Positions 1 to 19,319 of a stretch of 32,800 nucleotides of DNA are shown one piece after another. The notes beneath the pieces are model-generated. The model was given only the letters and a program-made list of their open reading frames with translations. It ran no database searches and had not been told where the DNA came from. The stretch lies in contig JBGSUI010000080.1 in the NCBI GenBank assembly GCA_041736175.1, forward strand, positions 1-32,800, given 5' to 3'. The stretch is from Oligoflexales bacterium (GTDB lineage: Bacteria > Bdellovibrionota_B > Oligoflexia > Oligoflexales > CAIYRB01). Made by a program: the position numbers and the translations under genes. Position 1 is the stretch's first letter. Each line of letters opens with the position of its first letter.

Positions 1-387
1 AAGGTCGGCATTCGCTGCGGTGATTTTACCCAAGACCATGGCAAGTTGCGAGACGTGGGTTTGTCCCGTTTTGAATAACTCCACGAATGCGGGAAAATGG
101 GCGAGGACTTTGGCTGCCTGGAGTCTCTTCCAGTAGACGTCGGGCGAAAGTCCCAGTGCTTCGATATATTGATCACGGGTGAGCCCGAGATTTCCGGCTG
201 CATTTTGTCGGTCAAGCTGATAGAGTACCCTCATTGAATCAAGCACCATATCGTGCTCCTTTTGATGGAGCAGGACAGCTTTATGAAACTGCCGGCGCAG
301 GAGCACGCGGATGTCAGAGGTAGATTCGGACGCGTCACAATTTTTTGGGAGCGCAAGAATTTTTGAGAGGGCTTCACTTGATATCAT
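1..387 (-). CDS. 5' part of a DUF222-like/HNH endonuclease-associated protein (runs off the window edge)
   Basis: Manual translation gives an open frame from ATG 387 to base 1: MISSEALSK...YIEALGLSPDVYWKRLQAAKVLAHFPAFVELFKTGQTHVSQL. This resembles the LG.S...Y.R..AA+....P......G pattern of DUF222/HNH proteins. The HNH domain itself is not in the window. Confidence 0.55.
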   Translation of the reverse strand, partial: MISSEALSKILALPKNCDASESTSDIRVLLRRQFHKAVLLHQKEHDMVLDSMRVLYQLDRQNAAGNLGLTRDQYIEALGLSPDVYWKRLQAAKVLAHFPAFVELFKTGQTHVSQLAMVLGKITAANADL

Positions 388-820
388 CGTTGTTTTTCTC
401 GCTCATTAAGGACGCTTTGGGGCGTCGAGACCTTGTAGAAAAAAGTTATAACACGGGTTGTAAAAGTCGATTTCAGTCGGAGTCTGCGGTCTTTTTTTAA
501 AACGCCTCTCGAAGCGGCAAATTTGTTTATGGGTCGGTTTGACTCGATCTGATAGGGAAAAATCAGCAAATTGGTTGCAGAGGCTATTATAGGAACCGTT
601 TTGTAAGCCCCAAAACCCGTCAAGCTTTTTCTGAAAAATAGAATGTTTTTAGAACCAGTTCGTCCTGGGGCGAACGACGCCAGAAGCATGCAGTCCAAGA
701 TTCGGTGACTCCAGAGGTGGAGCCCAGTGCGAAAAATCCAGGTCGGCAATTCCAAGGACCGTTCGCAGAGAGGGTTGGGCCCGGGACGAATCAGTTGGCC
801 AACCGTGGGGTCGAAGCCAG

Positions 821-12420: not shown

Positions 12421-12466
12421 ATCTCCGTCGATTCCGATATACATGGAGCCCTTGGAGGGGTATCTT

Positions 12467-13729
12467 ATGTATATACAGAAAAGGATTGGGAGAAACAGGA
12501 AAATTTATTTTTCTTTCAGCTACGACGACGAAGCTGGAAAGCGTATCAGGCTTAAAAAAGATCAGCATCCTTATTTCACTGATTTAAAAGATGCAGAGGC
12601 ATGGGCCAACTCCCAGGAAGGGATAAGGGCTTCCAAAAAAGCCGCGGCCGCGAAGAAACTGGAATGGAAGAAGGCTCACTACAATTTTGAGGATCTTCTT
12701 AAAAAGTACGAGCCTTGGCAACAAGAAAAGGCCCCCAATTCATACAAGGAAAATCTTTCCTATTTACGGCTCTACGTCTTCCCCTTCTTTCTCACGGAAA
12801 AACACTCTTCGAACATTAACGATTGGGGGTTGCATTACCAGGAGTTTCTGACCTTCCTCAAAACCACCACCACTCACGGCAAAAAGAAAAAGCATTTGGC
12901 TTACGCCACCCAAAACAACATCATCCGCTCCCTCAACACATTTTTGGCATGCTTAAAACAACACAGCCTTGTGGATCCCACCTTGGTCGTTAAGTGCCCC
13001 AGATATCCCAATGACAAGCTCAACAGCAGGGATTTCTCATTCGTGATAAACAAAAATGAAAGAGACACCGTTTTCAATTCCCTCAAATTTGTTGACATCG
13101 AGATAGCCGAGTTTTTTTGGCTCTTATGGCACACAGGTTTGCGATTTAACGAAGGCAGAGCGATCAACCTTGAATCCCTCCATATAGGGATGGTAAAGGA
13201 GGGTCCTCTATCAGAAGAGATGGAAAACGTCAATTTTGGGGAGTATTTTGGGTATCTTTATATAGACAGGCAGCTTCCAAAAGCGGACATAAGAAACGAG
13301 GACAACGCCGTTGAATTCAAGCCACTTAAAGGAAAAAAGAAGATAGACCCAAAGTATGCCAAGGTTGTTCCAATCAAGGACAAACAGTTATGGAACATTT
13401 TGGCCCGCAGGTACAATGCCGGCAAGGCATCAATGACCAGAGGGGTATTTGGCAAGCTAAAATCATCCTATCTTTTATTTGACGTCCCAAGCCTTGCCTC
13501 CATCACTTTAAAGGATGTTTATAAAAAACTTGGATTAGTTTACAAAGGATTTCACTCCTGCAGACACTCCTTCGCCACCTATATCGTAGGCGAATATAGA
13601 AGCAATTTCTTGGCCCGCACCATCACCGGCCATAAAAGCAGCGCTGTTTTCGATAAGTATTTGCATATTTACGAAGAGATCGCTCGAATGGCTAAAGCCG
13701 AGGACCAAGAGATCGAGGAGATAGCTTAG
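12467..13729 (+). CDS. int: Tyrosine recombinase/integrase
   Basis: HTGLRFNE, FHSCRHSFAT, TGH...DKYLH catalytic motifs; GGAGG SD before ATG 12467. Confidence 0.95.
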   Translation: MYIQKRIGRNRKIYFSFSYDDEAGKRIRLKKDQHPYFTDLKDAEAWANSQEGIRASKKAAAAKKLEWKKAHYNFEDLLKKYEPWQQEKAPNSYKENLSYLRLYVFPFFLTEKHSSNINDWGLHYQEFLTFLKTTTTHGKKKKHLAYATQNNIIRSLNTFLACLKQHSLVDPTLVVKCPRYPNDKLNSRDFSFVINKNERDTVFNSLKFVDIEIAEFFWLLWHTGLRFNEGRAINLESLHIGMVKEGPLSEEMENVNFGEYFGYLYIDRQLPKADIRNEDNAVEFKPLKGKKKIDPKYAKVVPIKDKQLWNILARRYNAGKASMTRGVFGKLKSSYLLFDVPSLASITLKDVYKKLGLVYKGFHSCRHSFATYIVGEYRSNFLARTITGHKSSAVFDKYLHIYEEIARMAKAEDQEIEEIA

Positions 13730-16166: not shown

Positions 16167-16517
16167 GTCAACCCTGGCAAGCCATACGGTCGGACATCTT
16201 ATCGAGACCTCGTGACCTCGACCGCCCAAGTCGAAGGGGTGTCAAAGGCCTCCGATGTAACCGACGTCGAGAGGACCATGGGCATTTTGGCCACGGACGG
16301 CCCCGGCGAGATCAATGATATGAAGGCCTTTACCGAGAGTAAGTCGGAGGGCGATTTCTGGGACCAGACCACCGACGACGACGAGTTCGAGATGTACCGG
16401 AAGAGGGGGTTCTCGGCCTCCGACTTCAAGGAATATGACATCGTCAACCCGGTGCAGGCCAGGGCTGCCATGCTTTACTTGGTCAGGGCCAGCCCGTCGC
16501 TCATCTCCGTAGCCTAG
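16167..16517 (+). pseudogene. Probable 3' remnant or small acidic protein of unknown family
   Basis: Frame is open from 16167 with protein-like composition but has no convincing SD/start. Confidence 0.35.
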
Positions 16518-16611
16518 GGGGCCATCGAGGGGGCGAGCGAAAGGGCCGCGGCGGCGACCAGGGCCGAACAATTGGCGACTGCCCAGGCAGCCGCGTTGGG
16601 AGGACGATTAT

Positions 16612-17163
16612 TCAACTTAGGTCGTCTTCACTGCAGTGGCAGGACCCAACCCAAATTCCGTTGGCTACCCAGGGGAATACCTTCTGGTCGGGGAGCTTTC
16701 GGCATGTCTCCGTGAAGTTGGGGTAGAACTTGGGGTTCTTACAGAGGGGGTGGCTGGTCTCCCCGCCTAGGCCTTTGCATGTGGCCGTGGCCTTGCCCGT
16801 GTAGGACTCGTCAATTGACTCCTCGCTCCCAAGACTCACTGGCAGCTTGAATGTGAACTCGAACCCGAAGGCCTGTTTTGGCACTGAGACCACCTTGGCT
16901 GTCGCCAGGCGGTCCACTGGACCGTCCGCACCGGCCAGGGTCACCTGTGCTTTGACCACGCAGTCCAGGCTGTTAGTGTAGGTGTTGGGGATGCTGAAGA
17001 ACAGTTGGTTGGCACCGCTCCCGTCCTTGCCAACGTAGACGTCCGCCTTGAGGACCACGGAGGTCCATTGGCTGAGGTCGTTTTCTGCCTTGGCCGCGTT
17101 GGTCATCAACCCAGCTAGCATGGCCAGACCAAAAAACTTCGATTTCATTTGCTTTAAGAACAT
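16612..17163 (-). CDS. Secreted beta-sandwich-like protein with a C-terminal Cys-rich CxC module
   Basis: GGAG SD and ATG 17163 overlapping the MACPF gene end; signal peptide ending AKA; ends NGIWVGSCHC. Confidence 0.8.
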   Translation of the reverse strand: MFLKQMKSKFFGLAMLAGLMTNAAKAENDLSQWTSVVLKADVYVGKDGSGANQLFFSIPNTYTNSLDCVVKAQVTLAGADGPVDRLATAKVVSVPKQAFGFEFTFKLPVSLGSEESIDESYTGKATATCKGLGGETSHPLCKNPKFYPNFTETCRKLPDQKVFPWVANGIWVGSCHCSEDDLS

Positions 17164-18452
17164 ACTTTCTCCCTTGTTGTTTTGTAGGCTAGGCACCCGC
17201 CGGCTCCATCTTCCATGGCGCATGTGACTTTGGCTTCCAGGCGGCAACAGTTGTTATCGTCAACGAACCAGCTATATCCCGCGGGACAGATGCTGGCATT
17301 AGTGGTGCCGGATCTTTCCCATCTTCTTGCCGGAAGGTTGACCTGCGGGAACGCGGACTCCGGCAGCTTGCAATTACCCCAGATGTCCTGGAAGCAGGCC
17401 ACCGCGGCGTCGTTCTGGAGGTTTAGGTAGGACGTCATGGCCACCTCACCAGCCCCTAGGTCCGCGGCCGAGTATGGCTGGAAGTTGCTTGAGTTCTTGC
17501 GGACGTACCTGATTGTGGCGAGGGCCTCCCTGGCGTCGTCCCGGTTCTTGGCCAGGTCGCTGATAACGAATTGCTGCCGCTCCAACAATGCTGGGTTTAG
17601 GCTAAGGTCGATCGGCTCCACTCCGGAGTAGTCCTTGGTGATTAGTTCCAATGTCACCGGGCTACCCGAGGCGGAGGAGGCGAGGTCCGTGAATTTTCTG
17701 CCATAGTCTTGCAGGTCGGACACCTCTGGAAGTGCTCCGTTACCGCCAAGGCGAAGCATTTTCACCTGGACTTTGGCCGACATGGAGAATTTGGCCATCT
17801 CGCTGCTCACTTCCGAGGAGGCCTTCCACCCGGCACCGCTGGCCTTGATGGCCGCACTGAATTTTTTCTCCTCCTCTGAGGAAGAAAACTCGTACTCGAA
17901 CAGGGCGTAGAACTCGCCACCCGTTCTTCTACCGTGAACGAATTCATTACCACACTGGTCAAAGAACGCCTTTTGATTGCCCTGTTTTAGAAGTGAGGCC
18001 GCGTTGTTTTTGAATGTGAAGGACGACGCCAAGGCCATTTGGTTGGACACCCTGGCGTGAACCAGTACGTAGCGGGATGCCGAGTTTTTGTTCACGCTGG
18101 ATACGAAGCTGAATCTTCCGCTTCCGCCGCCGAAAAGACCGCCTTTGATGCTGGCCGAGGCACTGACATTGAGGTTCTCCCTAAGGGATTTTTCCGAAGT
18201 AATTTCCAGTAGGCGATATTCCGCGTTGGAGCCCGTGATTTGACCGCTCTGGGTCTGGAGGAGCCCAAGCTCAACGCAGTGACCTTTGACGGTATTGTTT
18301 ACCGAGTTATAACCCTGGCCCAAAAGGAGGGCCACATTGGGGTCTTCTCCAGGTGTGTTTTGGACCGAAGAACTTCCGCTGGGCTTGACCGGTCCGCAGG
18401 ACAACATCAGTCCCATGGCTAGGAAAAACGGTTTGGTGTTTGGGAACTTCAT
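17154..18452 (-). CDS. MACPF/CDC-like pore-forming-fold lipoprotein
   Basis: Lipobox MLSC; LGQGYN; FFDQCGNEFVHGRRTGG matches the MACPF YGTH-x6-GG signature; two Ser/Ala/Gly-rich TMH-like segments (SASASIKGG, SAAIKASG); coiled coil and Cys-rich tail. Confidence 0.75.
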   Translation of the reverse strand: MKFPNTKPFFLAMGLMLSCGPVKPSGSSSVQNTPGEDPNVALLLGQGYNSVNNTVKGHCVELGLLQTQSGQITGSNAEYRLLEITSEKSLRENLNVSASASIKGGLFGGGSGRFSFVSSVNKNSASRYVLVHARVSNQMALASSFTFKNNAASLLKQGNQKAFFDQCGNEFVHGRRTGGEFYALFEYEFSSSEEEKKFSAAIKASGAGWKASSEVSSEMAKFSMSAKVQVKMLRLGGNGALPEVSDLQDYGRKFTDLASSASGSPVTLELITKDYSGVEPIDLSLNPALLERQQFVISDLAKNRDDAREALATIRYVRKNSSNFQPYSAADLGAGEVAMTSYLNLQNDAAVACFQDIWGNCKLPESAFPQVNLPARRWERSGTTNASICPAGYSWFVDDNNCCRLEAKVTCAMEDGAGGCLAYKTTREKVCS

Positions 18453-19297
18453 TAGTTTGCCTTCTCTTTATCTGTTTGGTTTCTAGCCAAGAATTTGATG
18501 ATGTCGTTTCTCCAAATTATTCTTGAAGCCGTGTTGTTAAGCTGTTCCTGCCAGCCGGAGTCCCCGGTGAGTACCCCGTTGGCCACGACGATGTGATTGG
18601 CGGCGTTGTCGCTGGCAACGTTGAAGTTCATCATTCGGCCCTCGTACTTGGTCCGCGACACTTCCATAACGGCGTCCGGCTCCATATTGTCGCCTAGGAA
18701 CAAGTCGCCCACCACGACGTGCTCGGCGGGCTTAAGGGCCACTAGCTTGCCGGACAGATCACCAATCACCATCGGGTGTGCCTTTGAGACGGTGATGGAT
18801 TTTCCCGACTGCATTTTGAAAACCCAAGATTTTTCGGTCTCTGGTCCGTAGGTCAGCGAGTTGATGCCACGGTCTGTGAACCCGCCTTCCAGGCCATCAA
18901 GGGTCGAAAGTTGCACTTCGCTGATCCGATCCTTTTGGCCCAAAAGTCTAGTCCCCGACGTCATTCCTCCCGAACTGGCGAACTCAGTGGCCTCCGCAAA
19001 GCACCCGCACCGACATTTCTGCATAGGTCTAGCATTGGAATCCAGTAGGGCGTACCAGTGACCGGTCGGGGTAAAACCAACGCATCCACCCACATTTGAA
19101 CACCCGTCTGTGCCTGGTGCACAATACATCCGAAAGAATTCAGCGGTGACGCACCTAGTGCCTTCGTGTTCCGGCAGCTTGCACAAAGATTCATCCCAAT
19201 CACCGGGCGTACAAGTGACACCCAGGGCAAATCCAGCGGTCAACCATAATCCTGCGGCGACGAACGCCAACCTCAACACATTAAGCATTTTCTTCAT
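18452..19297 (-). CDS. Secreted Cys-rich peptide fused to a Hint autoprocessing domain
   Basis: Signal peptide; G98|C99-FAEAT block A; VSKAHP block B; AEHVVVGDLF; HIVVANGVLTGD end lacks His-Asn. Confidence 0.88.
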   Translation of the reverse strand: MKKMLNVLRLAFVAAGLWLTAGFALGVTCTPGDWDESLCKLPEHEGTRCVTAEFFRMYCAPGTDGCSNVGGCVGFTPTGHWYALLDSNARPMQKCRCGCFAEATEFASSGGMTSGTRLLGQKDRISEVQLSTLDGLEGGFTDRGINSLTYGPETEKSWVFKMQSGKSITVSKAHPMVIGDLSGKLVALKPAEHVVVGDLFLGDNMEPDAVMEVSRTKYEGRMMNFNVASDNAANHIVVANGVLTGDSGWQEQLNNTASRIIWRNDIIKFLARNQTDKEKAN

Positions 19298-19319
19298 TCT
19301 ATCTCCTTAAATGTTTTCA

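Follow-up and report, generated by a model that had tools for sequence, protein, structure and literature searches.

A predicted exported, disulfide-rich peptide fused to a splicing-deficient Hint domain in an Oligoflexales bacterium

A new type of bacterial intein-like (BIL) domain was reportedly found by Dori-Bachash in 2009 in Bdellovibrio and myxobacteria, and its autoprocessing tested. According to a sentence citing that work, these C-type BILs carry a 'putative predator-specific domain 1' (PMC9185962). Passages of Bürglin (2008; PMC2362128) describe bacterial proteins with a C-terminal Hint (Hedgehog/intein)-like domain, a group noticed earlier by Dassa and Pietrokovski (2005), with Stigmatella STIAU_1829, Myxococcus MXAN_6253, Photorhabdus plu1731 and proteins of Reinekea, Serratia and Yersinia as members. 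Judged by the citing sentence, Bürglin's group is probably the C-type BIL of Dori-Bachash. Here we describe a protein with a Hint domain of this kind, encoded on the minus strand at 18452-19297 of a 32,800 nucleotide (nt) stretch of DNA from an Oligoflexales bacterium (assembly GCA_041736175.1, contig JBGSUI010000080.1, positions 1 to 32,800); the whole stretch is called the window below. Hints with this ending have been on record since 2005-2009, which makes the architecture less of a novelty than the earlier note, a reading of the same DNA made without database searches, had implied. The Hint class is thus already known and its NCBI label is generic; what is new is the eight-Cys passenger together with a conserved operon that includes a candidate MACPF-like lipoprotein.

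By its sequence the 281 amino acid (aa) product of this open reading frame (ORF) is an exported, disulfide-rich peptide fused to a Hint domain that is deficient in splicing. An AAGGAG ribosome-binding site lies 5 nt upstream of the ATG. The layout put forward in the earlier note, a signal peptide, a 72-aa passenger with eight Cys, a Hint domain and a short helical tail, is borne out by the ORF, the alignments and a structure model, and all coordinates in this paragraph are on the minus strand. Residues 1-26 (MKKMLNVLRLAFVAAGLWLTAGFALG; 19220..19297) read as the n/h/c pattern of a Sec-type signal peptide with a predicted cleavage site at ALG|VT; in the AlphaFold2 model the region is a helix from residue 2 to 23, and the N-termini of relatives are shaped alike and continue with x-T-C. 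The passenger, delimited by alignments A1 and A4, runs from V27 to G98 (19004..19219) with Cys at positions 29, 39, 49, 59, 66, 72, 95 and 97 and a conserved R48-C49. It ends at the junction C95-R-C97-G98|C99-F100 (18998..19015), where Gly98-Cys99 is the predicted scissile bond. C99 (codon 19003-19001) is the last Cys of the protein and Cys1 of the Hint fold, which spans residues 99-246 (18560..19003). The fold contains block B, S171-K-A-H174-P175 (T/S-x-x-H; 18773..18787), and a block F region, N224-F-N-V ... H235 (18593..18628), recognised by family column counts. The domain closes with A239-N-G-V-L-T-G245-D246, so that a G245-D246-S-G-W249-Q250 signature (18548..18565) stands in place of His-Asn. 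Residues 247-281 (18455..18559) form the helical tail, defined by the model, column conservation and the length and composition of tails among relatives.

The 281-aa sequence gave no match to Pfam or NCBIfam, and the Hint assignment therefore relies on relatives and structure. Intein_splicing was matched by 4 of 7 close homologues (best E 2.6e-6), and the profile of these seven found the Mja KlbA intein (1.7e-5) and the Pab PolC intein (1e-3) in PDB, pairing SKAHP with the THDHP of KlbA. In 6 of 16 more distant relatives TIGR01445 (intein_Nterm) scored above its cut-off; where the best stretch of a relative begins at model position 1, this position is the third Cys of CxCGC. An AlphaFold2 model from 7 sequences was too poor for use (predicted local distance difference test, pLDDT, 53.5), and a second one from 101 sequences reached an overall pLDDT of 84.5, with 90-98 across residues 100-250. 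Foldseek searches with this second model retrieved inteins at E 2e-9, along with Tetrahymena BIL2, a C. thermocellum BIL and Hedgehog, and VIA comparison with inteins and BILs gave Z 19-20 and a root-mean-square deviation (rmsd) of 1.6-2.0 Å over 132-144 aligned residues. In an unbiased search of 48,161 PDB chains the best 33 matches were all Hint folds. The alignment of model residues 99..246 covers whole inteins (Mtu RecA 1..440, PI-PfuI 1..454, Ssp DnaE 1..159), and hence C99 can be equated with intein residue 1 and D246 with the terminal Asn, G245 falling on the penultimate His. This agrees with the Hint start that the earlier note had placed at G98|C99. With the fold, a Cys as first residue and the block B T/S-x-x-H all found, membership of the Hint superfamily is confirmed on the predicted structure.

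To judge from the size of the family this is not a chance resemblance. A word-index search returned 7 clusters and an exhaustive search far more, with 333 cluster representatives at E<=1e-3, 84 at <=1e-10 and 27 at <=1e-30, most of the 333 being 250-300 aa long. Within its own phylum, 91 of 131 genomes, and 40 genera out of 55, had matches at E<=1e-10; many genomes had more than one, with a maximum of 13. A close relative comes from an Oligoflexales metagenome-assembled genome (MAG) and a distant one (P0086, E 6.4e-11) from a Bdellovibrionales MAG; relatives in Pigmentibacter and Fluviispira are labelled 'Hint domain-containing protein' by NCBI.

To quantify conservation, 156 sequences were aligned with hmmalign to a hidden Markov model of the 7 close homologues, with no selection for motifs; it should be noted that each count is over the sequences covering that column. 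At the junction, position -4 (C95) is Cys in 147 of 147, position -2 (C97) Cys in 115/147, position -1 (G98) Gly in 135/147, position 1 (C99) Cys in 146/147 and position 2 (F100) Phe in 130/146. Position 171 is Thr or Ser in 149/149 and position 174 His in all 149, so that the block B His, which had been noted as retained (SKAH), is in fact invariant. Asn occupies position 224 in 143/152, a place that by block F numbering is Asp in many inteins, and His occupies position 235 in 132/152. In the terminal signature Gly245 and Gln250 are each found in 152/152, Trp249 in 114/152 and Asp246 in 137/152, the others having Ser (9), Glu (3) or Thr (2). The N-terminal domains vary widely in distant members, and what stays constant is the module [Cys(-4)...G|C-F - Hint - G-D-x-x-W-Q - short tail].

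Some members of the family have unusual forms. The same genome holds a second one, of the distant type (G000:C16:5-481, L003), which is cut by the contig start, ends ...GYLSGSSSQQ...NRHLFR and is followed by a 254-aa protein and a lipoprotein. P0019 (391 aa) continues after its tail with a Pro/Gln-rich linker and a second passenger domain that ends ...CRCGGL at the end of the record; judged by its sequence this could be a unit repeated in tandem and truncated by a contig end. A 169-aa ORF (L043:65-574, minus strand) has a passenger, a CRCG|CF junction and about 40 Hint residues before its stop, and, adjoining a full-length copy, looks like a decayed one. The word-index search with alignment A2 gave no fused forms of greater length, which is weak evidence, and Hint matches do exist inside ORFs of 600-900 aa.

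With G245-D246 in place of His-Asn, canonical splicing is excluded, in agreement with the earlier note, which had observed that the terminal Asn was missing. The GD ending is a trait of the family and not an oddity of the genome, since the GyrB gene of the same genome (G000:C234:66415-69606, L004) holds a genuine intein that keeps ...HN|T (Intein_splicing 63.5 bits; start at Ser, end at ...CCHN|T).

In the 101-sequence model residues 247-280 of the tail are a single helix at pLDDT 70-78. As this alignment was picked for having both motifs, its invariant columns serve as description only; it shows a conserved tail core at 247-263 (W249, Q250, L253, R259, R263), and beyond 263 the tail of our protein is gapped in 39-95% of rows. 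The stretch after G-D measures 17-49 aa in 146 relatives, with a median of 22 and exactly 18 aa in 51 of them; ours has 35 aa. Over the first 17 tail residues of these relatives the mean hydrophobicity is -0.16, and no hydrophobic run exceeds 7, a length reached in one protein. At the position after Asp (+1), 73 relatives have Leu, 27 have Asn and 11 have Ser or Thr; our protein has Ser247, and homologues 39-48% identical to it have Gln or Leu. Hint is C-terminal in all 146, with only those 17-49 residues beyond, hence there is no C-terminal cargo. The tail looks like a conserved extension of this type of Hint rather than a cargo domain or a hydrophobic region like that for sterol recognition, and these figures do not support the proposal that it is equivalent to the tail of Hedgehog.

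The passenger is modelled at pLDDT 63-80. Its profile found no relative among PDB sequences at E<=10, the sequence has no match in Pfam, and an ESM Atlas search with residues 26-98 gave no usable match. A likeness to Kunitz/BPTI was considered (1knt; E 0.73 for the sequence alone, 0.5 for profile A1) and rejected, as it was gone with a passenger-only profile. Cys were counted from residue 21 onwards in 132 relatives with both motifs placed. The total for the N-terminal domain is even in 118 of them, and some of those with an odd total have a Cys inside the signal peptide; in 129 Hint plus tail has no Cys besides Cys1. Best conserved are Cys 49 (preceded by Arg), 59, 95 and 97. From these counts we infer that all passenger Cys are paired in disulfides, the last passenger strand being stapled by C95 and C97, and that Cys1 is the single free thiol; the even passenger count and the lack of other Cys in Hint and tail fit a free Cys1 in an oxidising compartment. 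It had been suggested that the CRC motif at the junction might take over the thioester by transthioesterification, and such full bonding of the passenger, in which these Cys would probably be in disulfides, argues against it. Cyclisation had been suggested along with it; in a head-to-tail form by native chemical ligation it is unlikely because the predicted mature N-terminus is V-T-C and not Cys.

Passengers also exist without a Hint domain. In two genomes of one genus, paralogs of 99 and 107 aa lie directly upstream of the Hint gene (L037:7616-7915 and L041:7589-7912), and their mature part ends ...KCQC or ...KCRC, followed by a stop, which corresponds to junction position -2. As these Hint-less paralogs stop at CxC, the passenger seems to be an autonomous secreted unit with a natural end at the junction, and the N-terminal product of autocleavage would be a paralog-like peptide plus one Gly. 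A Hint-less relative of another passenger type is found at L047:7653-7949 (98 aa). Further, the window itself encodes a diverged passenger-like protein without Hint (20101..20445, minus strand; 114 aa, predicted to be secreted, ...GQWFVL...GRCQC-P...), which aligned to passenger profile A4 with an hhalign probability of 66% (E 5.7e-5, 52 columns; BLASTP E 9e-4) and has a Gly/Trp-rich C-terminal extension.

Taken together we favour autocleavage at Gly98|Cys99 after export, freeing a peptide with four disulfides, as a somewhat probable reading of the sequence; the Hint-less paralogs that stop at CxC speak for it. The protein would be exported, lose its signal peptide and fold its 72-aa passenger with four disulfides, which, all eight passenger Cys being paired and Cys99 being the only other Cys, would leave Cys99 as a free thiol. 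Helped by S171 and H174, an N-to-S acyl shift would then take place at Gly98-Cys99. Since Gly-Asp replaces His-Asn and there is no conserved +1 nucleophile, the thioester would not be passed on by splicing, and it would be resolved directly, most likely by water. The products would be a disulfide-rich peptide ending ...C-R-C-G and a discarded fragment of Hint and tail beginning with Cys99. G245, D246, W249, Q250 and the first 17 tail residues would be part of the catalytic module and not cargo; D246, beside the thioester, may act as general base for the incoming nucleophile, and W249 and Q250 may shape the site for it. Some points weigh against this reading. The invariant G245 and Q250 and the conserved tail seem to exceed the needs of simple hydrolysis, which leaves room for a specific acceptor; D246 could cleave the C-terminal side instead; the invariant Cys(-4) could pair with Cys1. 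The disulfide pairing is deduced from Cys counts, the passenger model has moderate confidence (pLDDT 63-80), and the signal peptide was assigned by reading the sequence.

A specific acceptor would make the reaction more like that of Hedgehog: for example the head group of a lipid, an amine of the cell wall or a residue in one of the operon partners, placed by D246, W249, Q250 and the tail helix, would attack the Gly98 thioester instead of water, and the released peptide would bear an adduct or anchor at its C-terminus. Hedgehog has the same G|CF junction, G245-D246-x-x-W-Q250 is conserved like Cys1 and His174 and sits at the active-site end of the fold, and the tail core is present in all relatives regardless of the N-terminal domain. 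The layout also mirrors that of nematode groundhog and ground-like genes, in which, according to passages of PMC2362128 and PMC1636047, cargo occurs with and without Hog. However, with a median of 22 aa and a mean hydrophobicity of -0.16 the tail is short and polar, unlike a sterol-recognition region, and the conserved neighbours have no Pfam match to lipid- or acyl-handling families, with a partial exception in the HEAT/Vitellogenin_N-like protein of a different synteny group. The Hint-less paralogs are moreover cargo that exists without an adduct made by Hint, and we regard such transfer, which the earlier note had put forward for Gly98 and which no result here supports, as rather unlikely. 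Further, we speculate on a bacterial counterpart of Hedgehog maturation outside the cytoplasm, in which Hint and the 17-residue G-D-x-x-W-Q...R tail would be a single-turnover acyl-transferase that hands the Gly98 carbonyl of the peptide to a defined acceptor other than water, for instance a lipid of the envelope, peptidoglycan or an operon partner like the candidate MACPF-like lipoprotein described below. The peptide would become anchored or armed, D246 would be the activating base and Cys(-4) might be a redox gate; in this full form the proposal is unlikely.

Processing at both ends is conceivable as well, where D246 would cyclise and cut off the 35-aa tail, to be released or, by attack of its new amine on the thioester, joined to the passenger in a BIL-type ligation. 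Asp or Gln can substitute for intein Asn, and D246 stands at the terminal-Asn position with Ser at +1 in our protein. A review (PMC7765530) describes A-type BILs that can do without a +1 nucleophile in cleavage or ligation, and B-type BILs with an atypical cleavage at the C-terminal end. The family fits this poorly, as the penultimate His that assists cyclisation is an invariant Gly, 14 of 152 have Ser, Thr or Glu in place of D246, Ser or Thr at +1 is found in just 11 of 146 and is replaced by Gln or Leu in the homologues 39-48% identical, and an 18-aa tail ends the protein in 51 of 146; we consider it quite improbable. A redox gate, in which a disulfide from Cys(-4) or Cys(-2) to Cys1 would keep the precursor intact until reduction, for example inside a target cell, triggers release, would be compatible with any of the other mechanisms. 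Natural redox-trap inteins exist, the fold matches include 3nzm, an intein engineered with such a 'redox trap' between an N-extein Cys and Cys1, and Cys is found at -4 in 147 of 147 and at -2 in 115. The even passenger count in 118 of 132 rather fits full internal pairing with Cys1 left free, and Cys 49, 59, 95 and 97 look like two staples within the passenger, which makes the gate about as improbable as the two-end processing. Finally the Hint could be dead and serve for folding or binding only, the protein staying uncut, since His-Asn and the block F Asp are replaced. Almost every one of the 147-149 proteins retains Cys1, T/S-x-x-H and G|C, and this retention across very different N-terminal domains points to selection on catalysis, hence we find a dead Hint very improbable. 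Direct resolution of the thioester after autocleavage at Gly98|Cys99 is the reading that we prefer.

The Hint gene is the fourth in a run of six genes on the minus strand, encoding proteins of 260, 114, about 256, 281, 432 and about 183 aa; several stops and starts overlap, and all six proteins have hydrophobic N-termini. The first gene (20442..21224, 260 aa) has an N-terminal hydrophobic segment, and its stop overlaps the start of the gene for the 114-aa passenger-like protein. An upstream lipoprotein-like gene of about 256 aa (19320..20090, probable GTG start at 20090) follows, with weak homologues in 2 of 20 related loci, which were sampled from the best places of a phylum-wide genome search. 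Downstream, the TAA stop of the Hint gene overlaps the ATG of a lipoprotein-like gene (17154..18452, 432 aa) with an LSC lipobox and a Cys-rich C-terminal domain. The last gene encodes a predicted secreted protein of about 183 aa (16612..17163; probable start at M29 of the listed ORF) with a Cys-rich C-terminus and no detectable relation to the passenger. Pfam gave no match for the 432-aa, 183-aa and 260-aa proteins, and no promoter or terminator in 16300-21600 scored higher than in shuffled sequence.

Homologues of the 432-aa protein, 45-53% identical, adjoin the Hint gene in 8 of the 20 loci (directly after it in 6), and the same 8 carry a homologue of the 183-aa protein; the 260-aa protein has one upstream of the Hint gene in 11. 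In an Oligoflexales MAG the homologues of the Hint protein and the 432-aa protein have consecutive locus tags. The latter is better conserved than the Hint protein, and its gene is translationally coupled to the Hint gene. All 55 clusters related to it are unnamed or 'hypothetical'. In the Atlas it matched MACPF with a score of 0.90, and 13 of 30 matches share the MACPF-carrying family set. PF01823 was found in 2 of 9 members of its family at E 0.018 and precomputed in 1 of the 55 relatives. Further, a 41-sequence profile of the family matched Aeg-L (PDB 9uj0) at E 0.0039 over about 150 residues, including a G-x-x-F...GG stretch; a review (PMC13341504) presents Aeg-S and Aeg-L of Alternaria as proteins perforating epithelia. 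These signals are weak but agree, and as a lead we suggest that this lipoprotein-like protein may be MACPF-like. The released peptide would probably work with the other secreted products of the operon, this one included. Complex prediction for its residues 20-432 with the mature Hint protein (27-281) gave no answer (score 0.00) and has no bearing on binding. Small lipoproteins of 91-106 aa (L036:5058-5360, L038:2296-2571, L037:8892-9185 and L041:8866-9186) cluster with its Cys-rich C-terminal domain; as they are encoded in the same operons, both large operon proteins have small, stand-alone Cys-rich relatives.

Seven of the 20 loci, including those of Pigmentibacter and Fluviispira, have a different set of conserved neighbours, and the remaining loci are mixed. 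In this second neighbourhood (L044, L045, L047-L050, L053) the Hint gene is followed by genes for proteins of about 250 and about 470 aa and further unknowns. In two of these loci (L045, L048), and in L034, L042 and L052 besides, the run extends with more unknown genes and, except in L034, ends in a HEAT/Vitellogenin_N-like protein; loci of this extended type include L052:1077-2996 and L042:14967-15872. The other proteins scanned from the second neighbourhood had no Pfam match. Its 476-aa neighbour was tried as a relative of the 432-aa protein and rejected (hhalign probability 0.2%). Elsewhere in the window, genes of mobile-element type encode an integrase-like protein (12443-13729, plus strand, sub-threshold), a Rep_1-like replication protein (25745-27220, minus strand), an FtsK/SpoIIIE-like ATPase (27436-28869, minus strand) and an AAA_21 (AbiEii-type) ATPase (31064-32161, plus strand).

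The module is common, with 333 representatives and a presence in 91 of 131 genomes of the phylum, yet almost unstudied, as no experimental work on it was found in the literature searched. The same searches returned nothing on the eight-Cys passenger subfamily, the Cys(-4)/CxCG|CF junction, the G-D-x-x-W-Q statistics, the Hint-less paralogs or the MACPF-like operon, and did not pair 'Hint domain' with Oligoflexia, Silvanigrella, Pigmentibacter, Fluviispira or Bdellovibrionota; a comparative genomics study of Bdellovibrionota (PMC11656739) mentions neither Hint, intein nor MACPF. If autocleavage is true, this would be a natural Hint that forms a peptide thioester beside a four-disulfide domain in an oxidising, extracytoplasmic setting, with a possible use in periplasmic or secreted expressed-protein ligation. 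The gene logic, secreted cargo with and without Hint, is shared with eukaryotic Hog and bears on the origin of Hog-type maturation. The operon, in which the candidate MACPF-like lipoprotein comes with several predicted secreted proteins that are small and Cys-rich, points to an undescribed secreted system for membrane attack or cell-cell interaction in bacteria of the Oligoflexia type.

Compared with known systems, canonical inteins share with our protein the Hint fold, a Cys or Ser at position 1 and the block B TxxH. They lie inside conserved cytoplasmic proteins and end in His-Asn followed by Cys, Ser or Thr, whereas our protein has neither His-Asn nor a conserved +1 residue with a C-extein; it ends in G-D, its +1 is not conserved and there is no real C-extein. 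Gly-Cys-Phe is the cleavage-site motif of Hedgehog, and G98-C99-F100 is found here; Hedgehog/Hog proteins also have the same order of signal peptide, secreted cargo, G|CF, Hint and short C-terminal region. Nematode hh-related genes share cargo with and without Hint in the passages of PMC2362128 and PMC1636047 used here. However, the tail of our family is much shorter than the Hedgehog tail region and polar, and the Hint is no closer to Hedgehog (1at0 and 6tyy, VIA Z 18.5-18.6) than to inteins and BILs (Z 19-20). Hog PF01079 gave no match for our protein, stayed at E 0.12 in 1 of 7 homologues and reached 19-20 bits against a cut-off of 29.7 in 3 of 16 distant relatives.

The A-type BIL of C. 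thermocellum (2lwy) has the same fold as our Hint (Z 18.9, rmsd 1.7, 133 residues), and A-type BIL/Pretoxin-HINT proteins are likewise secreted bacterial proteins that autoprocess without canonical splicing. They keep His-Asn, cut on the C-terminal side and often release a toxin domain, in contrast to the Gly-Asp and short tail found here. PF07591 gave no match for our protein and was sub-threshold in 3 of 7 homologues (E>=0.0094); one distant relative, P0154, scored 28.1 bits, just above the cut-off of 27.7. For the B-type BIL (Hint_2, PF13403) our protein had no match and 3 of 16 relatives reached 13.7-16.3 bits against a cut-off of 28.4. The Bürglin group, in the parts of PMC2362128 used here, comes with 400-500-aa N-terminal regions without a CxCG|C motif and without an eight-Cys passenger, unlike our protein. 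Compared by eye, both have the plan of a secreted protein with a C-terminal Hint, an [S/G]-C junction and an HP(V) block B, and all six sequences of Additional file 16 of that paper end ...aGG(I/F)LVGDxxxQ with a short tail. The GDxxxQ ending is, in the same comparison by eye, also that of our protein and of 137-152 of 152 relatives.

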